IMG/VR virus record: IMGVR_UViG_2713896773_000013 | Source of the DNA: a virus | Taxonomy: Duplodnaviria; Heunggongvirae; Uroviricota; Caudoviricetes | Length of the DNA: 5,296 bases | Strand: one strand, 5' to 3' | In this document: positions 1 through 5,296 of the stretch, piece by piece | Layout: every line of letters begins with the position of its first letter | Numbering within the stretch: position 1 is the stretch's first letter | The notes under the pieces: model-generated | Told to the model about the DNA's origin: nothing | Seen by the model: only the letters and a program-made list of their open reading frames with translations | The model's database searches: none | Position numbers and translations under genes: made by a program

Positions 1-20
1 TGATCCACCGCGCGATAAAT

Positions 21-61
21 AAGCCGCAATCCGTGAGATAAATGGACACGGTGCGGCTTTT
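21..61. terminator. Putative intrinsic terminator hairpin just downstream of the tape-measure gene stop (looks bidirectional)
   Basis: Seen in sequence: AAGCCGCA (21-28), 2-nt bulge, CCGTG (31-35), 11-nt loop, CACGG (47-51), TGCGGCTT (52-59). The + strand continues with TT (T-run 58-61); the minus strand continues with ATTTAT. It lies about 30 nt beyond the TMP stop codon (89-91). Confidence 0.4.
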
Positions 62-88: not shown

Positions 89-2566
89 TCAGTCGTAAGC
101 AACCCGGCGCTTACGGGCAAGAATAGCTTCCAGCGCTCTTTCAATCTCAGGAATGGACAGCTTAAGCGCATTCGCTACATCCGGTGCTGGTGACTTGTTC
201 TTGCCATCAATATAGATATGGTTAATGACGTTAATCCCTGCACCTGCCGGTGAATGTGAATCCCGGCCTCTGGATAAGGTAAGGTCGCCGCGCATATAGC
301 GCTCTAATACGGGTGGTACTTTCGGTACATCCGGCACCATCATATCAGCCAGCCGCGAGGAGGCTTTTAGCGCCAGCGATGCAGACTGACCGATACCAAT
401 CGCCGCCCCTTCTGCGATGTTTGAACCGAAGCCCATAAAGACCCGGCTTGGCGAGTGAATCCCCAGCTTTTCCTTGAACCACCCGCCGACGCTATCGCCC
501 ATCTCGGTAACGGTATTCTTGAGCGACTCCCACTTATTTTTGATACCGTTCACCAGTCCGTCAATCAGGTGACCGCCAAACTCGGTAAACTGGCCGGGAA
601 GGTCGATGTTAAACCACTTCATGACCCCCGCAAACGCCTTGTAGAACAGCCCCAGCGGCGACCAGTTCAGGATTAGCTTACTGACACCAAGAACCCCGCC
701 GTTAAAGGCTGTTTTCACTTCCTCCCACCGCTGCGAGAACCATCGGCTTATCGCGCCCCAGTTGCGGTAAATCAGGTACGCGCCCCCGGCGATGATGGTT
801 ATCGCAATGCCTATGGGGTTCATTAACAGCGCCCTGCCAAACCAGAGGAAAGCCTTTGCCACCACCATTACGCCTCTGAACAGTCCACCCGCCAGCGCTT
901 TACCCAGCATTCCGGCTCCTTTCGCCACGGTACTGAATCCGGTCGCCAGCCAGCGCAGCTTGCCGCCGTCGCTGAGGGCTGTTTTGAGTAACAGCCAGTT
1001 AGTGCGCAGCAGTACGACGTTTTTCCACAACCCGGCGAACGGAGATACCAGCAGGTTAAGACCGAGTTTCAAGCCGACAGTGGCGATTTTCAGCCCCAGC
1101 AATGCGCCCACTGTTTTTGCCACGCCCTGAACAATGCCGGGATGTTGCGCTATCCATTGCCCGGTGGAATGAATCAGCGGAATCAGTTGCTGCGTCATTG
1201 ACACGAACGAGGGAGACAGTTGACTGCCAAGGGTAATGGACAGTTCGCGGGTGCTGACCATCAGTGCTTTGGTCGCCTCCAGCGGCGATTTCAGTCGCTC
1301 CGTGTAGGAGGAGGCCAGCAGGTCTTTATCCGCCGCCTTAAGTGCGCCAGCCCTGATTTCGCGGTATTTGTCCATGTTGGCGAGCATCGGACGGACAAAC
1401 GCCATGACCTGCATATCGGCGAACATCTCACCCAGACCGAAATTCTTTGCCAGTTCCTGTAACGCAAGGTCGCGGGAGTTATCGTCCTTGATTTTCATTG
1501 CTTTCTTGAAGCCTGCCAGTGCTTCCGGGCTTTTGGCCTCCAGATACCTGCCCATGACGCTTATCATGCCCTCAATGGGCGAGACGCCAGCAGATTTATA
1601 AGCCATGAGTGACCCCTGAAGGTCAATCCCGATATCGGCAAACTGTTTCTGCGTGTCGCGGGCAAAAATCTTGGTGAGGAAGTTACGGAAGTTGTTACCA
1701 GCCTCGTCAGATGACCCGGCACCAATTCGGGCAATCTGTAAACTCGCTCCGATTTCCGCCATCGCTTCTTTACCTTCGGCAATACCGCGCATCATCGGGG
1801 CAAGAGATGGCATCCATTTCACCTGGTCAGGTATTTCAAAAGACCCCTGGTCGCCTGCAAAGGCCATGATGTTCTGTACTTTGGCAAACTCTTTAGCGCT
1901 GCCATCCATCGAGTTTTTCCAGACGGCGGCAACCTTCGCCCATTCCGTCCCTGTGGTGCGTGTGGCAGTAGCGGCGCGGGCTATATTGGGCATGAAGCTG
2001 CCAATTTCGGACACACTGTCGATATTGTCACTGATAAGCGAGCCTACGGCGTCCTGTAAGTCGCTCTGGTACTGGTTGTACTTGAGCGACCATCCCCGGA
2101 TTTGCTGCCCCAGACTGGCGCGGGTTTTATCGTCATATTTCGCCGTGATCGACATATCAATCATCTTGTCGTCGAACGTAGCCGACTGCTGAATCGCCGG
2201 GGAAACGAGGCTGTAAGCGGCTTTGGCCTGCGCCCACGTCTCAATTCCCTGTCCATAAAGCGCCATCCGGTTAGCTCTCAGGGCATCGGTTGTGGCAGAC
2301 GCTGCCGACAGGCGGGACTGCTGGCGGTTTAGTTGCTCCAGCGTTCTGCCTACCCGTTGCAGGTCATTGTTCAGGCGTGAGGCCACGCCTGAACCTACCT
2401 GACCGTAACGCTGCATGGCGCGTGACAGGCTGCTTTGTTGCTCGGTCAGGCGGCGTGACGTGTCGCCGAGAGAATCAAGCGCCCGCCGTGTGCCGCTGAC
2501 GGCGGAACGGAAGCTGCTCCCGACAATACCGCCAATCATCACACCAACAGAAAAATTATTGCTCAT
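89..2566 (-). CDS. Phage tail tape-measure protein (myovirus P2 gpT / Mu gp42-like class), 825 aa
   Basis: Uninterrupted 825-codon ORF. ATG at 2566-2564 preceded by GGAG about 7 nt upstream. N-terminus of TMP type (FSVGVMIGGIVGSSF followed by a Q/R/S-rich coiled-coil region). Central Gly/Ala/Leu-rich hydrophobic segments typical of TMPs (for example GALLGLKIATVGLKLGLNLL and NPIGIAITIIAGGAYLIY). GIHSPSRVF-type motif near the C-terminus. Length is in the range of P2 gpT (815 aa) and lambda gpH (853 aa). Confidence 0.85.
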   Translation of the reverse strand: MSNNFSVGVMIGGIVGSSFRSAVSGTRRALDSLGDTSRRLTEQQSSLSRAMQRYGQVGSGVASRLNNDLQRVGRTLEQLNRQQSRLSAASATTDALRANRMALYGQGIETWAQAKAAYSLVSPAIQQSATFDDKMIDMSITAKYDDKTRASLGQQIRGWSLKYNQYQSDLQDAVGSLISDNIDSVSEIGSFMPNIARAATATRTTGTEWAKVAAVWKNSMDGSAKEFAKVQNIMAFAGDQGSFEIPDQVKWMPSLAPMMRGIAEGKEAMAEIGASLQIARIGAGSSDEAGNNFRNFLTKIFARDTQKQFADIGIDLQGSLMAYKSAGVSPIEGMISVMGRYLEAKSPEALAGFKKAMKIKDDNSRDLALQELAKNFGLGEMFADMQVMAFVRPMLANMDKYREIRAGALKAADKDLLASSYTERLKSPLEATKALMVSTRELSITLGSQLSPSFVSMTQQLIPLIHSTGQWIAQHPGIVQGVAKTVGALLGLKIATVGLKLGLNLLVSPFAGLWKNVVLLRTNWLLLKTALSDGGKLRWLATGFSTVAKGAGMLGKALAGGLFRGVMVVAKAFLWFGRALLMNPIGIAITIIAGGAYLIYRNWGAISRWFSQRWEEVKTAFNGGVLGVSKLILNWSPLGLFYKAFAGVMKWFNIDLPGQFTEFGGHLIDGLVNGIKNKWESLKNTVTEMGDSVGGWFKEKLGIHSPSRVFMGFGSNIAEGAAIGIGQSASLALKASSRLADMMVPDVPKVPPVLERYMRGDLTLSRGRDSHSPAGAGINVINHIYIDGKNKSPAPDVANALKLSIPEIERALEAILARKRRVAYD

Positions 2567-2597
2567 GGTTCACTCCGGTTGAGTGGTTCGGTGGGCG

Positions 2598-3191
2598 TCA
2601 TTCAGTCAGGGACAGGCCGCTGATTCCGGTAATCCCGGCAATTTCTTCGCTGACGGCTGCCAGTTCACTTTCAAGCCCGGTGCGTTCGCTGACCAGTGCC
2701 GCCACGGTCTTACGGCGCTCTGCCAGTGAGGGAAGTTTGTCATTACCCCACGTCACGCTCTTATCCTTCTTAAGCGCTTCGGTCAGTCGGGTGGCGACCA
2801 CATCCGGGAAGAAAAAGCAGAGCTTGCGCATTACCGCCATCCCGGTATCAGCCGGGGGGACGTTTCCTCCCAGCCCCACCAGACGGAACAGACCGGAAAT
2901 ATCGCCGTTCTCATTTTCCAGATTGCCCCAGCGTTCGGCGTTCCCTTCACCGCCGGAACCGTTGCAAAGAGCACGCTTGAATGACTGATATTCTTCCTGC
3001 CCGAATCGCTCAATATATTCAGGAATAAAGGAACAGTAATCATTAAGTGATAACGGCATATCCTGTAATGCGGTTATTTCGCCATTAATATCACCAATGC
3101 GACGAGAGAGCTTTTCTTTCTGCTCATTCAGGGAGGTAAGGTTATTTTTAACGGCGTTCAGTGCTTCAATGAGGGAAATAACAGGTTTCAT
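2598..3191 (-). CDS. Hypothetical coiled-coil protein, 197 aa (function unknown; sits where a TMP chaperone would normally be, but does not look like one)
   Basis: ORF with ATG at 3191-3189 and GGAG about 10 nt upstream. Stop is 31 nt upstream of the TMP start; start is 1 nt after the stop of the preceding gene. N-terminal heptad-like segment (LIEALNAVKNNLTSLNEQKEKLSRRIGDINGEITALQD), central Gly-rich region, C-terminal predicted helix (LAERRKTVAALVSERTGLESELAAVSEEIAG). I recognise no family. Confidence 0.6.
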   Translation of the reverse strand: MKPVISLIEALNAVKNNLTSLNEQKEKLSRRIGDINGEITALQDMPLSLNDYCSFIPEYIERFGQEEYQSFKRALCNGSGGEGNAERWGNLENENGDISGLFRLVGLGGNVPPADTGMAVMRKLCFFFPDVVATRLTEALKKDKSVTWGNDKLPSLAERRKTVAALVSERTGLESELAAVSEEIAGITGISGLSLTE

Positions 3192-3192
3192 T

Positions 3193-3807
3193 TTAATAAC
3201 TCCAGATAAAAGGTGTAGTGAGGGTGAGCGCTTCGGAATAGGAGACGTTGCAGGCTTCGCTTACATCCTTTATTAAAAGGTGCTGCGCTGCCCTCTGGCT
3301 GTCGGCTATGCCGTCGAGCTCTGAGAAATAAACGTGTGATTCATTGTGACCAAAACAAACCGGGTAAGCGCTTTCCATAAACTCCACCTGCTCAAGCCCC
3401 TTTACGGCTGGCGGCTGTGCGCCGAGAAAACCAATATGGCGAAGATACCAGGCACCAGTTCCGGCCGGGTTACGCGCTTCTCCCGGCCTGTAGAAAGCGG
3501 CAGACACTTTTTTATATAGACCTGACTGAACCATATCCAGCAACCTGTTATCAGGCTTAACCAGCGCGAAAAGTCTGCCGTTTTTACTTATCAGTCCGGT
3601 GGTTTCACCATAGGCGGGACTGTTACTGGCCGGATGCCCCAGGCACAGCGGCGCACCATAACCCGCGCGATGATAGCCGTTATAGGCTGCTGCCATGTTG
3701 TCGATATCCTCGTCGGAAAAGCTGATTTCCTGCCCCGCCATCGCGGTATGTGTTCCCGCCCGGAATATCTCAATAGTTTTCCAGTTACCAATATTGATAT
3801 CTGTCAT
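3193..3807 (-). CDS. Hypothetical protein, 204 aa, N-terminal half resembling the phage P2 GpO prohead serine-protease domain (MEROPS S73-like); C-terminal 60 aa unrelated
   Basis: ORF with ATG at 3807-3805 and AGGGA about 12 nt upstream, 1 nt after the stop of the Mor-like gene. By-eye alignment to remembered P2 gpO: FRAG...GQEIS..DEDIDNMAAAY versus FRIG...GRVIS..AQDIQEMAETF; CLGH versus INLEH (candidate catalytic His); GRLFALVKPDN..LYKKVS versus GKWALFAKITP..AQKVYTS (candidate catalytic Ser); WYLRHIGFLGAQPPAVKGLEQVEF versus YLVGLAVTDDPASLGTEMLEF. Not verified by any search. Confidence 0.5.
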   Translation of the reverse strand: MTDINIGNWKTIEIFRAGTHTAMAGQEISFSDEDIDNMAAAYNGYHRAGYGAPLCLGHPASNSPAYGETTGLISKNGRLFALVKPDNRLLDMVQSGLYKKVSAAFYRPGEARNPAGTGAWYLRHIGFLGAQPPAVKGLEQVEFMESAYPVCFGHNESHVYFSELDGIADSQRAAQHLLIKDVSEACNVSYSEALTLTTPFIWSY

Positions 3808-3808
3808 T

Positions 3809-4336
3809 TTATATTTGTCCCTGTTTCATATCGCGGCACTCTTTGTTTTTCTTACGCTCGGCGGCAATAATCTGATAAATCCACTGAATAGAATTGCCAT
3901 ATTTCCTGGCTAATTCCCGATGAGTCATCCCTTGTTTGTAATCGGAAAATATCCTGGCATTTCTGTCGAAAGAGTTTCTGGCTGCGCCATTAGGTATATA
4001 GAAATTGTTACCTTTAAAGACCCTTCTAAGGTGTTCTGTAATTTCCGGGGAAATGATTTCGGCCTGAGCCGAAAAGCAATGTATTGTAAGCAAAGCCTGC
4101 GCTATCACACCTGTAAGCTCATGCAGAAAAGATGTTGCTTTAGGGGCGTCTTCACATTCTATTGGCATGTAATTCTGGCAACCACCAAGATTATCAGATA
4201 TATGCAAAACAATTTTATTTGCTGCACTACTTGCCTGAAGTTGTGAATAGCCCGCATCAGTCAGAAAATCTTCAATCGCATCCCCCATTTCCCCCAGAGT
4301 GTCAGATGTTGCGTACAATCCCTCTCTTGTAATCAT
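3809..4336 (-). CDS. Mor/C-family (phage Mu late-gene activator-like) transcriptional regulator with an N-terminal extension, about 175 aa
   Basis: C-terminal region KGNNFYIPNGAARNSFDRNARIFSDYKQGMTHRELARKYGNSIQWIYQIIAAERKK matches the Mor-family signature (GG.Q.YIP....R..RN..I...F.G.....LA..YG.......Y..I) ending in an HTH. Start placed at ATG 4336-4334, which has GAGG 7 nt upstream; the ORF track's in-frame GTG at 4342 has only 1-nt spacing. The gene is clearly AT-richer than the downstream genes. Confidence 0.65.
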   Translation of the reverse strand: MITREGLYATSDTLGEMGDAIEDFLTDAGYSQLQASSAANKIVLHISDNLGGCQNYMPIECEDAPKATSFLHELTGVIAQALLTIHCFSAQAEIISPEITEHLRRVFKGNNFYIPNGAARNSFDRNARIFSDYKQGMTHRELARKYGNSIQWIYQIIAAERKKNKECRDMKQGQI

Positions 4337-4344
4337 AATCACAC

Positions 4345-4393
4345 CTCGGTAATGATAAAGATGTGCGCTAAAAAGGCTTTATAAAGCTTTATG
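4345..4393 (-). promoter_or_regulatory. Candidate activator-dependent promoter with dyad-symmetric operator upstream of the Mor-like gene
   Basis: Minus-strand TATCAT (+ strand 4352-4357) is a 5/6 match to the -10 consensus, with no convincing -35 hexamer. Two overlapping perfect 12-bp palindromes, GCTTTATAAAGC (4376-4387) and ATAAAGCTTTAT (4381-4392), containing TAAAGC direct repeats at 10-bp spacing, are centred roughly 37-42 bp upstream of the predicted start site. Confidence 0.35.
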
Positions 4394-4537
4394 AGGCGTC
4401 TTTCTGGTGACAAATCAGCACATACACCATTAACGCTTTAAAATGGCTTACAGGCTTTTTTAGCGCGGGTTACTAATGTGGATTAAGAATATGGTTTTGG
4501 GGCGGGGATGTTTTTTAATGTACTTTAGATATGAAGA

Positions 4538-4559
4538 AGCCCCTCAGAGGAGGGGCTTG
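4538..4559 (-). terminator. Putative intrinsic terminator after the 96-aa gene
   Basis: Perfect 9-bp GC-rich stem AAGCCCCTC / GAGGGGCTT with a 4-nt loop, 16 nt after the TAA stop (4575-4577). Followed on the minus strand by a T-containing but imperfect tract, CTTCATATCT. Confidence 0.45.
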
Positions 4560-4574
4560 CGGGATTACGCCAGA

Positions 4575-4865
4575 TTATTGAGGTCGTCTGTCTTTCCTCA
4601 ATCCATCAAGTAGCGCCATGGCATCAGTAACCAGTATGCCAGCAGCATCCGTAACCATCGAAACATCAGAGGATGCACATGATTTATCCATACCTAATGT
4701 TGACGCAAAATCAAGTAGCTTACGAACTGCGTCAAGTCGATAGGTGGCAGAGTCGTAAATTAACTCCTGATTAGCATCAGTCTTTAAAAACATAATATCA
4801 TCAGAGGCACCTTGTGAAAATGACGGCATCGCACGGAAAGTATTTTGAGTTTCAGCCTGTTTCAT
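4575..4865 (-). CDS. Hypothetical protein, 96 aa (unknown function)
   Basis: ORF with ATG at 4865-4863 and GGAGGG about 9 nt upstream. Its start overlaps the stop of the upstream ORF in an ATGA arrangement (4862-4865). AT-rich composition. No recognisable motif. Confidence 0.5.
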   Translation of the reverse strand: MKQAETQNTFRAMPSFSQGASDDIMFLKTDANQELIYDSATYRLDAVRKLLDFASTLGMDKSCASSDVSMVTDAAGILVTDAMALLDGLRKDRRPQ

Positions 4866-5296
4866 TGTGCAGCCCTCCGGCTAATAGCGAATTTATTATA
4901 AACTTCATAACTGGCAGCATTCAGTCCGGGGTTGTATTTATCAGCCAGAGCACAGGCAATCATATGTTCAATAAATTTTGTTATTGCGTTAAGTTCGGTT
5001 TCGTCTGAATAACGCAATGCCACTTTGAGTAACTCGCGGCAATATTGCTTTTTATTCTCTTCGATTTGGCCTGATTGTTTTATTCCTGCCTTTTTATCTA
5101 ACTCGTCCTCAACAGGCAAAGATGAGATATCCTCTTTATTGGTTAGCGTTCTTTCGCAAATAATATCTTCACCAGATTGAATTACGCGCTGCAACTCTCT
5201 GGCGCTCATGCGAAGAATATCATCAAGCGTGTGGTCGTTATATGCCCCACCACTGGCAAGGAGATCCAGTGTCACTTCATCCAGCCGGGCAAGCAG
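4862..5296 (-). CDS. Hypothetical protein, 5'-truncated by the window edge (at least 144 aa visible)
   Basis: The reading frame stays open from the stop at 4862-4864 up to position 5296. The start at 5275 given in the ORF track is a GTG, and the frame continues open upstream of it, so the true start probably lies outside the window. Acidic, Lys/Glu-rich central stretch; no family recognised. Confidence 0.45.
   Translation of the reverse strand: MLARLDEVTLDLLASGGAYNDHTLDDILRMSARELQRVIQSGEDIICERTLTNKEDISSLPVEDELDKKAGIKQSGQIEENKKQYCRELLKVALRYSDETELNAITKFIEHMIACALADKYNPGLNAASYEVYNKFAISRRAAQ

Follow-up and report, generated by a model that had tools for sequence, protein, structure and literature searches.

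A short head-maturation protease with a scaffold-type C-terminal tip in a small transposable element that may depend on BcepMu-like helper phages

The 5,296-nt stretch of viral DNA analyzed here in full (the window; Caudoviricetes, IMG/VR record IMGVR_UViG_2713896773_000013) carries an operon-like string of genes, all on the − strand. Our subject is one of them, ORF204 (3193..3807, − strand), which starts with ATG and encodes a 204–amino acid (aa) protein. We annotate it as a short-form head-maturation protease on the basis of its match to PHROG 976, an AlphaFold2 model, its homologues, and the selection acting on it. A single nucleotide separates its start from the stop codon of a gene for a Mor-family transcription activator (177 aa; 3809..4342, − strand; Pfam PF08765, E = 1.7e-25), and a single nucleotide likewise separates its stop from the adjoining start of ORF197, which encodes a 197-aa partner of the short protease (2598..3191, − strand). 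A homology search with ORF204 yielded 263 homologues, and 184 indexed blocks of the assembly collection contain a protein identical to it. When compared with enterobacterial copies, ORF204 had a ratio of nonsynonymous to synonymous substitution rates (dN/dS) of 0.09 to 0.20 at dS of up to 0.67; it is a real gene under purifying selection.

Residues 9 to 153 of ORF204 match PHROG family phrog_976, “head maturation protease,” with E = 1.2e-46. The match covers positions 31 to 173 of the 415-position profile, and positions 174 to 415 are left unmatched by ORF204. Pfam and NCBIfam scans of ORF204 gave zero matches even at E ≤ 1, and a sequence search of the PDB returned chance matches only. Both ORF204 and ORF197 are annotated as hypothetical in RefSeq, and neither is included in any Pfam or NCBIfam family. 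The phage homologues of ORF204 are the head proteases of BcepMu (gp32), phiE255, B3, RcapMu, KS10 (gp28), phiSHP3, RR1-B, and PhiKM, all of them Mu-like transposable phages, and the matches are limited to the N-terminal 65 to 86% of ORF204. The family of ORF204 is therefore PHROG 976, that of the BcepMu gp32, B3, KS10 gp28, and RcapMu head protease. P2 gpO and Mu gpI are assigned to different PHROGs (73 and 328, respectively), and comparison of Mu gpI with the ORF204 family by hhalign gave E = 0.063 at a probability of 0.9%.

The AlphaFold2 model of ORF204, built on a 25-sequence alignment, has a predicted local distance difference test score (pLDDT) above 90 across residues 10 to 130. A fold search with this model in BFVD retrieved prohead peptidase/scaffold proteins at E values down to 8e-16, including the scaffolding protein of Serratia phage KSP20, which we take to be a P2-like phage. 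The predicted fold is that of prohead proteases (T4 gp21 and herpes assemblin), with an assemblin-like beta-barrel. The protease domain spans residues 9 to 145 (3373..3783, − strand). The His of a CLGH motif and the Ser of a KKVS motif, singled out as candidate catalytic residues in a first-pass annotation made from the window sequence, are H58 (codon 3634–3636) and S102 (codon 3502–3504), just where they had been placed. Together with H124 (codon 3436–3438), they are invariant (100%) across 178 nonredundant domains of the family, short and long forms alike (83 short, 12 intermediate, and 83 long). H124 is probably the third catalytic residue beside H58 and S102. The catalytic triad of herpesvirus proteases is Ser-His-His, and the residue order His-Ser-His in the ORF204 family agrees with it; the third catalytic residue of T4 gp21 was not found in our literature search. 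ORF204 apparently has an intact catalytic set and would be catalytically competent.

The first-pass annotation had called this a gpO-type domain and left it undecided between an active protease and a pseudo-protease. That ORF204 is a P2 gpO-type (S73) enzyme, or a pseudo-protease that lost the Asp of the triad, now appears very unlikely. A triad of D19, H48, and S107 was reportedly assigned to gpO by Chang et al. in 2009. The ORF204 family does align with gpO by hhalign over 122 columns, at a weak E = 0.003 and a probability of 10%; H58 falls opposite gpO H48, S102 is two columns off gpO S107, and Ala24 stands opposite gpO Asp19, as the annotation had suspected. The KSP20 protein among the fold matches points in the same direction. 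On the other side, a search for the Phage_GPO/S73 profile found no PF05929 match at E ≤ 1, the two proteins fall into different PHROGs, and the column aligned to gpO Asp19 varies across the ORF204 family, including the head proteases of characterized phages, while H124 is invariant instead. What stands is thus the assignment to prohead serine proteases, His and Ser being conserved; membership in the gpO family does not. Given the invariance of H58, S102, and H124 and the purifying selection on the gene, a pseudo-protease is also unlikely, the more so as the column of the gpO Asp is variable in the family.

The C terminus of ORF204 had been noted as unlike the scaffold region of gpO, and this was borne out; instead, it is homologous to the tip of the PHROG 976 long forms. 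The protease domain is followed by a disordered linker (approximately residues 143 to 165; 3313..3381, − strand), recognized by pLDDT and a motif count, with pLDDT below 50 at residues 144 to 160 and the tripeptides FME at 143 to 145 and FSE at 161 to 163. The last part, residues 166 to 204 (3196..3312, − strand), is a predicted helical hairpin (helices 169 to 186 and 190 to 203 in the AlphaFold2 model) with the motif R-x3-H-x12-SY-x-EA. When 80 short-form C-terminal extensions were compared by hhalign with the last 55 aa of 83 long forms, a probability of 93.6% and E = 2e-7 were obtained, and the motif R-x3-H-x12-S-Y-x-E-A is spaced identically in ORF204 and the PhiKM protease. The C-terminal ~40 aa of ORF204 are not novel, because they are homologous to the extreme C terminus of long forms.

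Across the family, the region after the protease domain is trimodal in length (~40 to 70, ~100 to 110, and ~180 to 260 aa). ORF204 has 59 aa after the domain compared to 180 to 260 aa in long forms, and in the ~100-aa class, the hairpin is present in two copies. In KS10 and BcepMu, the scaffold is encoded in-frame inside the C-terminal part of the protease gene (PMC2628397). ORF204 does not have this full scaffold-body architecture with a nested scaffold gene; as judged from the alignments, it is a protease joined to a scaffold tip, devoid of the ~170-aa linker and coiled-coil scaffold body. In a neighbor-joining tree of the domain (no bootstrap), ~70 of the 83 short forms were in pure clades outside the clade that contained all 83 long forms, a pattern that speaks for a separate lineage of some age and against repeated truncation in recent times. 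Gamma- and Betaproteobacteria share the short-form architecture. Short forms thus make up a subfamily of their own, widespread and under selection.

The FME and FSE tripeptides belong to a pattern, F-[AGSM]-[ED], that occurs three times in ORF204 versus 0.29 expected (P = 0.002) and is ~10-fold enriched in the C-terminal regions of the whole protease family. Two such F-x-E motifs bracket the disordered linker of ORF204. PhiKM (L096) has eight copies in its protease-scaffold and four in its portal (P = 0.01), encoded at 2140–3636 and 5114–6229, and none in its capsid, terminase, F, G, sheath, and tube proteins. Mu protease reportedly processes both the portal and the scaffold, a finding ascribed to Grimaud in 1996. 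Since F-x-E is confined to the protease-scaffold and portal in PhiKM and the Mu protease processes the same two kinds of protein, these motifs are plausible cleavage sites. We regard F-[AGSM]-[ED] as a candidate cleavage-site consensus of the protease family; the motifs in the ORF204 linker are plausible candidates for self-cleavage sites, use of which would free the protease from the tip.

To see the short and long forms in context, open reading frames (ORFs) in 80 genome loci and in several others were labeled by similarity to annotated references. Long forms occur in two arrangements: gp27-TerL-portal-MuF-G-[protease]-(cement)-capsid, as in Thiocystis and PhiKM, and the KS10-type Mor-[protease]-capsid. 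In most phage loci examined, a capsid gene adjoins the long form. Short proteases are preceded by Mor in nearly all loci, sometimes with Gam, and are followed on the 3′ side by a gene for a 175- to 240-aa protein and then by the end of the element and host genes. They lie at the end of 7- to 8.5-kb elements that carry repressor-MuA-MuB-GemA and no major capsid gene. Salmonella elements of 7.5 to 8 kb, for example, encode a repressor, Mu-type transposase, MuB-like ATPase, GemA, Mor, Gam, the short protease, and its partner; they are found at three chromosomal sites and have terminal inverted repeats. A betaproteobacterial element with a short form lies between ftsK and a reductase gene, and further short-form loci were found in Ca. 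Desulfobacillus, Dechloromonas, Rhodoferax, and others.

The partners encoded 3′ of short proteases form one family, on which a local jackhmmer run converged. A hidden Markov model (HMM) of this ORF197 family matched only ORFs immediately downstream of short proteases, at ~20 loci, and had no match in long-form loci or in the PhiKM genome. Word-indexed searches for ORF197 homologues found them in Enterobacterales only; the link to the neighbors of short proteases in Beta- and Gammaproteobacteria came from jackhmmer. We considered whether ORF197 might be the detached scaffold body of a split gene and rejected this, the hhalign probability against the middle regions of long forms being 0.7%. In two loci, L005 (10601–11160) and L019 (3125–3704), a probable frameshift divides the ORF197 homologue into two ORFs, next to an intact short protease. 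A different situation is seen in L092 (10001–10576) and L093, where a 191-aa short form and a PBECR2-domain gene lie beside CRISPR-Cas; Mu genes and an ORF197 partner are both missing, and this short form may be a domesticated or stranded copy.

Comparison with Escherichia coli relatives revealed a 7,862-bp element, most of which is contained in the window. The element termini are inverted copies of TGAT-N9-GATAAATA-N9-CCGTGAGATAA. One of them occupies positions 1..48, base 1 of the window being its first base; the motif recurs inverted at the far end in L001, L095, L100–L103, and L009, always with a perfect 6-bp target duplication. GATAAATA and CCGTGAGATAA are likely transposase-binding repeats. 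Spaced terminal repeats of this kind resemble the multisite transposase-binding ends of Mu-like phages. Bases 1 to 84 of the window are 79% identical to bases 3 to 86 of the phage Phi06_2974 B contig. The element was found at seven or more sites, each with a perfect duplication, which differs among the following seven: in ynbC (AGTGAA), in the PTS gene glvC (GCCGAA), beside a CMD-family gene (GCTTGT), between narJ and narI (CCGTGG), in recQ (AGAAAT), in a lambdoid prophage (TCAGGC), and at one further site (TTTTAC). The protease is identical in four of these cases, and the presence of an identical element at several sites implies recent transposition. The host genes disrupted in L102, L001, and L095 are recQ, ynbC, and glvC; given these disruptions, carriage of the element may have phenotypic consequences for the host.

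The gene content of the element includes no transposase, integrase, portal, large terminase, or capsid gene, and a six-frame comparison revealed no transposase remnant. The earlier remark that no portal, terminase, or major capsid gene lies nearby thus holds for the window and extends to the whole 7.86-kb element of relatives. The sole terminase-related item, located outside the window at the far end of the element (L001 27325–27669), encodes a 114-aa N-terminal helix-turn-helix part of a Mu gp27/DUF3486-type small terminase. This fragment corresponds to positions 1 to 50 of the 173-position Pfam profile and is 36% identical to helper gp27 (described below) over residues 1 to 53; it could serve as a packaging-specificity decoy of the kind used by satellites. 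As in satellites, the absence of capsid, portal, and large terminase genes is combined with cis-acting ends compatible with a specific helper. A further contig, L107 (an IMG/VR UViG of 7,799 bp), contains nothing but the element, nearly complete in length, which is the only hint of packaging in helper virions.

The candidate helper is a PhiKM-like Bcepmuvirus prophage that 640 of the 5,426 complete genomes of E. coli carry. Its genes include those for an rve-type transposase of 589 aa and an ExeA/MuB-like protein. In strain ZH063, it is inserted in ssuB, is 38.5 kb long, and is flanked by the 6-bp duplication TCTCGA. Its terminus TGATGCGCCGCGCGATAAAT matches the ZH063 copy of the element at 20 of 20 positions and the window at 18 of 20, its terminus TGATCAGACATGAGATAAAT matches the other end of the element at 19 of 20, and an inner CCGTGAGATAAAT repeat is common to prophage and element termini. 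The element and the prophage co-reside in two sequence type 131 (ST131) genomes, ZH063 and SaT040. Taken as a whole, the sequence data indicate an active nonautonomous transposable element that would have to use the transposase of a BcepMu-like phage.

The element is not a recent deletion derivative of PhiKM, because its genes are only 27 to 46% identical to those of the helper: 46% for the protease, 35% for Mor, 27% for an early DUF3102-like gene, and 36% for the gp27 N terminus at the amino acid level. That derivation was also rejected at the DNA level, where only the tape measure gene (~69 to 72% nucleotide identity) and 41 nt of one terminus match. By these comparisons, the element and the PhiKM-like prophage appear to be old relatives, not parent and derivative. 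The same data bear on whether ORF204 is merely a truncated, functionless leftover of a degraded Mu-like prophage. Such decay would account for the gp27 fragment, for the apparent rearrangement of the element relative to a full phage, and for the split ORF197 homologues of L005 and L019. It is hard to reconcile with dN/dS of ~0.1 at dS of up to 0.67, invariant catalytic residues, a short-form architecture conserved between Gamma- and Betaproteobacteria and placed in its own clades, seven insertion sites, and the low identity to helper genes. Selection and mobility data largely exclude this explanation, which we consider highly improbable.

The remaining genes of the window were characterized as follows. 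The last gene before the element end (89..2566, − strand) encodes an 825-aa tail tape measure protein (TMP), recognized by Pfam PF10145 (E = 5e-20) and PHROG tape-measure families. It is 71% identical to the TMP of Escherichia phage PhiKM at the amino acid level and ~100 aa shorter than the helper TMP. ST131 strains contain, beside tRNA-Ser, a variant of the element that retains the terminus and is devoid of the TMP gene. Because its identity to PhiKM is far above that of the other element genes and because it is missing from the ST131 variant, TMP looks like recently acquired, optional cargo. It sits in an element without other tail genes. ORF197 is modeled by AlphaFold2 (pLDDT 80) as an antiparallel coiled-coil hairpin that bears a small head domain; a fold search with this model returned generic coiled coils only. 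Upstream of Mor is ORF96 (4575..4865, − strand), a small gene conserved in all element copies that had no family match in Pfam, PHROG, or NCBIfam scans. It is preceded by the 3′ part of a 245-aa gene (4862..5296, − strand), cut by the window end and present at full length in the relative L001. The 245-aa gene product is 27% identical to that of a 303-aa gene upstream of the PhiKM-like transposase, and its L079 homologue matches DUF3102; by sequence, it is distantly homologous to the DUF3102-like early gene located before the transposase gene of BcepMu-like phages. GC content steps near position 3750, from ~54 to 60% in the tape-measure region and 48 to 54% in protease/ORF197 to ~40 to 46% at 3750–5296, suggesting a mosaic origin of the element halves. 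Counts in a promoter and terminator scan of the window were not above shuffled expectation, an Rfam scan gave no match, and megablast of the window against phage records gave no match.

The genes for Mor, the protease, ORF197, and TMP are tightly coupled as an operon, which raises the question of whether the protease acts on something other than a capsid: on ORF197, on TMP, or on a regulator such as the helper repressor. In some phages, the tape measure protein undergoes proteolytic processing. The ST131 variant and all autonomous short-form elements, however, have no TMP, the F-x-E motif is not enriched in TMP and does not occur in ORF197, and retention of a scaffold-type tip argues for location at the capsid. 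A noncapsid substrate is thus, in our estimate, a rather improbable explanation.

The reading we favor, with about as much weight for it as against it, is that the window belongs to a helper-dependent, satellite-like element whose capsid-targeted short protease acts on the helper procapsid. In the first step, which is strongly supported by sequence, the transposase of the helper would replicate and move the element. During the lytic program, Mor would then turn on the protease, ORF197, and TMP; we propose that Mor, the protease, and ORF197 are cotranscribed. The tip would dock the protease into the assembling helper procapsid in the manner of a scaffold C terminus, and the protease would cut helper scaffold and portal at F-x-E sites and then free itself. 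Together with ORF197, it would divert or sabotage helper head assembly to the benefit of the element. The outcome could be either capsid hijack, including size redirection, or interference.

Several points weigh against this reading. The capsid-binding role of the tip would rest on analogy with other scaffold C termini; binding of coat protein by the scaffold C terminus is seen in many phages (P22, phi29, and 80alpha/SaPI CpmB). An HMM of the C-terminal 55 aa of long forms matched none of the short-form C-terminal extensions below E = 1e-3; this HMM was based on a poorly anchored alignment, and only profile-profile comparison detected the tip. The pattern used for collecting loci includes H124, and the conservation of this residue is thus partly built in, although it is equally conserved in proteins from the independent homology search. 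In L021, the protease/ORF197 pair is followed by a gene for a 394-aa Portal_Mu protein, and in L109, an IMG/VR contig, by MuF-like and G-like genes; head genes can therefore accompany the pair. Since laboratory mini-Mus enter virions together with flanking host DNA and need no small capsid, size redirection is not required. Last, in the PhiKM-like prophage (L099 4383–5015), the slot after Mor and before the phage end holds a gene for a 210-aa predicted membrane protein, which was tested as an ORF197 homologue and rejected on comparison. This terminal slot is probably an accessory (moron) position, and since it holds an accessory gene in the helper, defense or interference cargo would fit it equally well.

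Under that alternative, the pair would be an accessory module that shields the host or the element from related Mu-like phages by docking on their capsid or scaffold proteins and cutting prematurely, with no role in the transfer of the element. Along with the position of the pair in a slot occupied by an unrelated gene in the helper, the short form beside CRISPR-Cas in a locus without any Mu genes is consistent with such cargo, and the conserved tip and active site are as well. Proteins that block virion assembly are reported from prophages of Pseudomonas (PMC10884400). Yet, PADLOC models gave no matches to eight element proteins, the pair keeps close company with small Mu-like elements, which depend on a helper themselves, and the truncated gp27 and TMP of the element point to virion hijack rather than pure defense. 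We consider assembly interference of this kind unlikely, though still to be reckoned with.

Going beyond the window element, it is possible, and we advance this tentatively, that protease-ORF197 is the signature module of an undescribed satellite family that parasitizes Mu/BcepMu-like phages and remodels or sabotages helper heads by means of a capsid-targeted protease without a scaffold body. Its members would be either transposition-autonomous (repressor-MuA-MuB-GemA-Mor-protease-ORF197) or transposase-borrowing, like the window element.

Both the protease family and the satellite concept are already known. The proteases of BcepMu (gp32/gp33), KS10 (gp28/gp29), and B3 have the same domain as ORF204 (37 to 49% identity, E values down to 1e-29) and have in common with it the H/S/H residues, the C-terminal tip motif, and F-x-E motifs; the KS10 protease gene also lies directly after Mor, as ORF204 does (PMC2628397). 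Unlike them, ORF204 has no scaffold body or nested scaffold gene and no adjoining capsid gene, and it is paired with the ORF197 family, which is absent from full phages. P2 gpO resembles ORF204 in having a ~140-aa N-terminal protease fused to a C-terminal capsid-interacting part and in weak profile similarity; ORF204 differs in the Ala at the Asp19 equivalent, in its probable third residue, His, in an unrelated C terminus, and in the lack of a Pfam match. T4 gp21 and herpesvirus assemblin are 12 to 14% identical to ORF204, whose domain is smaller.

The capsid-remodeling factors Sid and Psu of P4, CpmA and CpmB of SaPI, Ccm of SaPIbov5, and TcaP of PLE likewise come from helper-dependent elements without capsid genes. 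CpmB shares its capsid-binding C terminus with the helper scaffold, which parallels the scaffold-type tip of ORF204. None of the P4, SaPI, and PLE factors is known to be a protease, and their helpers are not transposable phages. To our knowledge, the well-studied satellites (P4-like, PICI/SaPI, cf-PICI, and PLE) all exploit site-specifically integrating phages with cos or pac packaging, and we know of no satellite that uses a protease-based remodeling strategy. Laboratory mini-Mu consists of Mu ends without structural genes and is replicated and packaged only with helper Mu. Compared to it, the elements considered here are natural and widespread and carry Mor, the short protease, ORF197, and sometimes TMP and the gp27 fragment, and the E. 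coli type is also devoid of a transposase. In a literature search with partial journal coverage, we came across no report of a natural satellite of transposable phages, nor of the short protease/ORF197 module, natural mini-Mu–type elements, or a transposase-less version matched to a Bcepmuvirus.

The element is present in clinical E. coli, including ST131, and co-occurs with a candidate helper in two genomes, so the proposed interaction is directly testable. If it is true, it would explain a widespread and hitherto unannotated gene pair, the short protease and ORF197, and would add a protease-based mode to the ways in which phage capsids are hijacked or interfered with.

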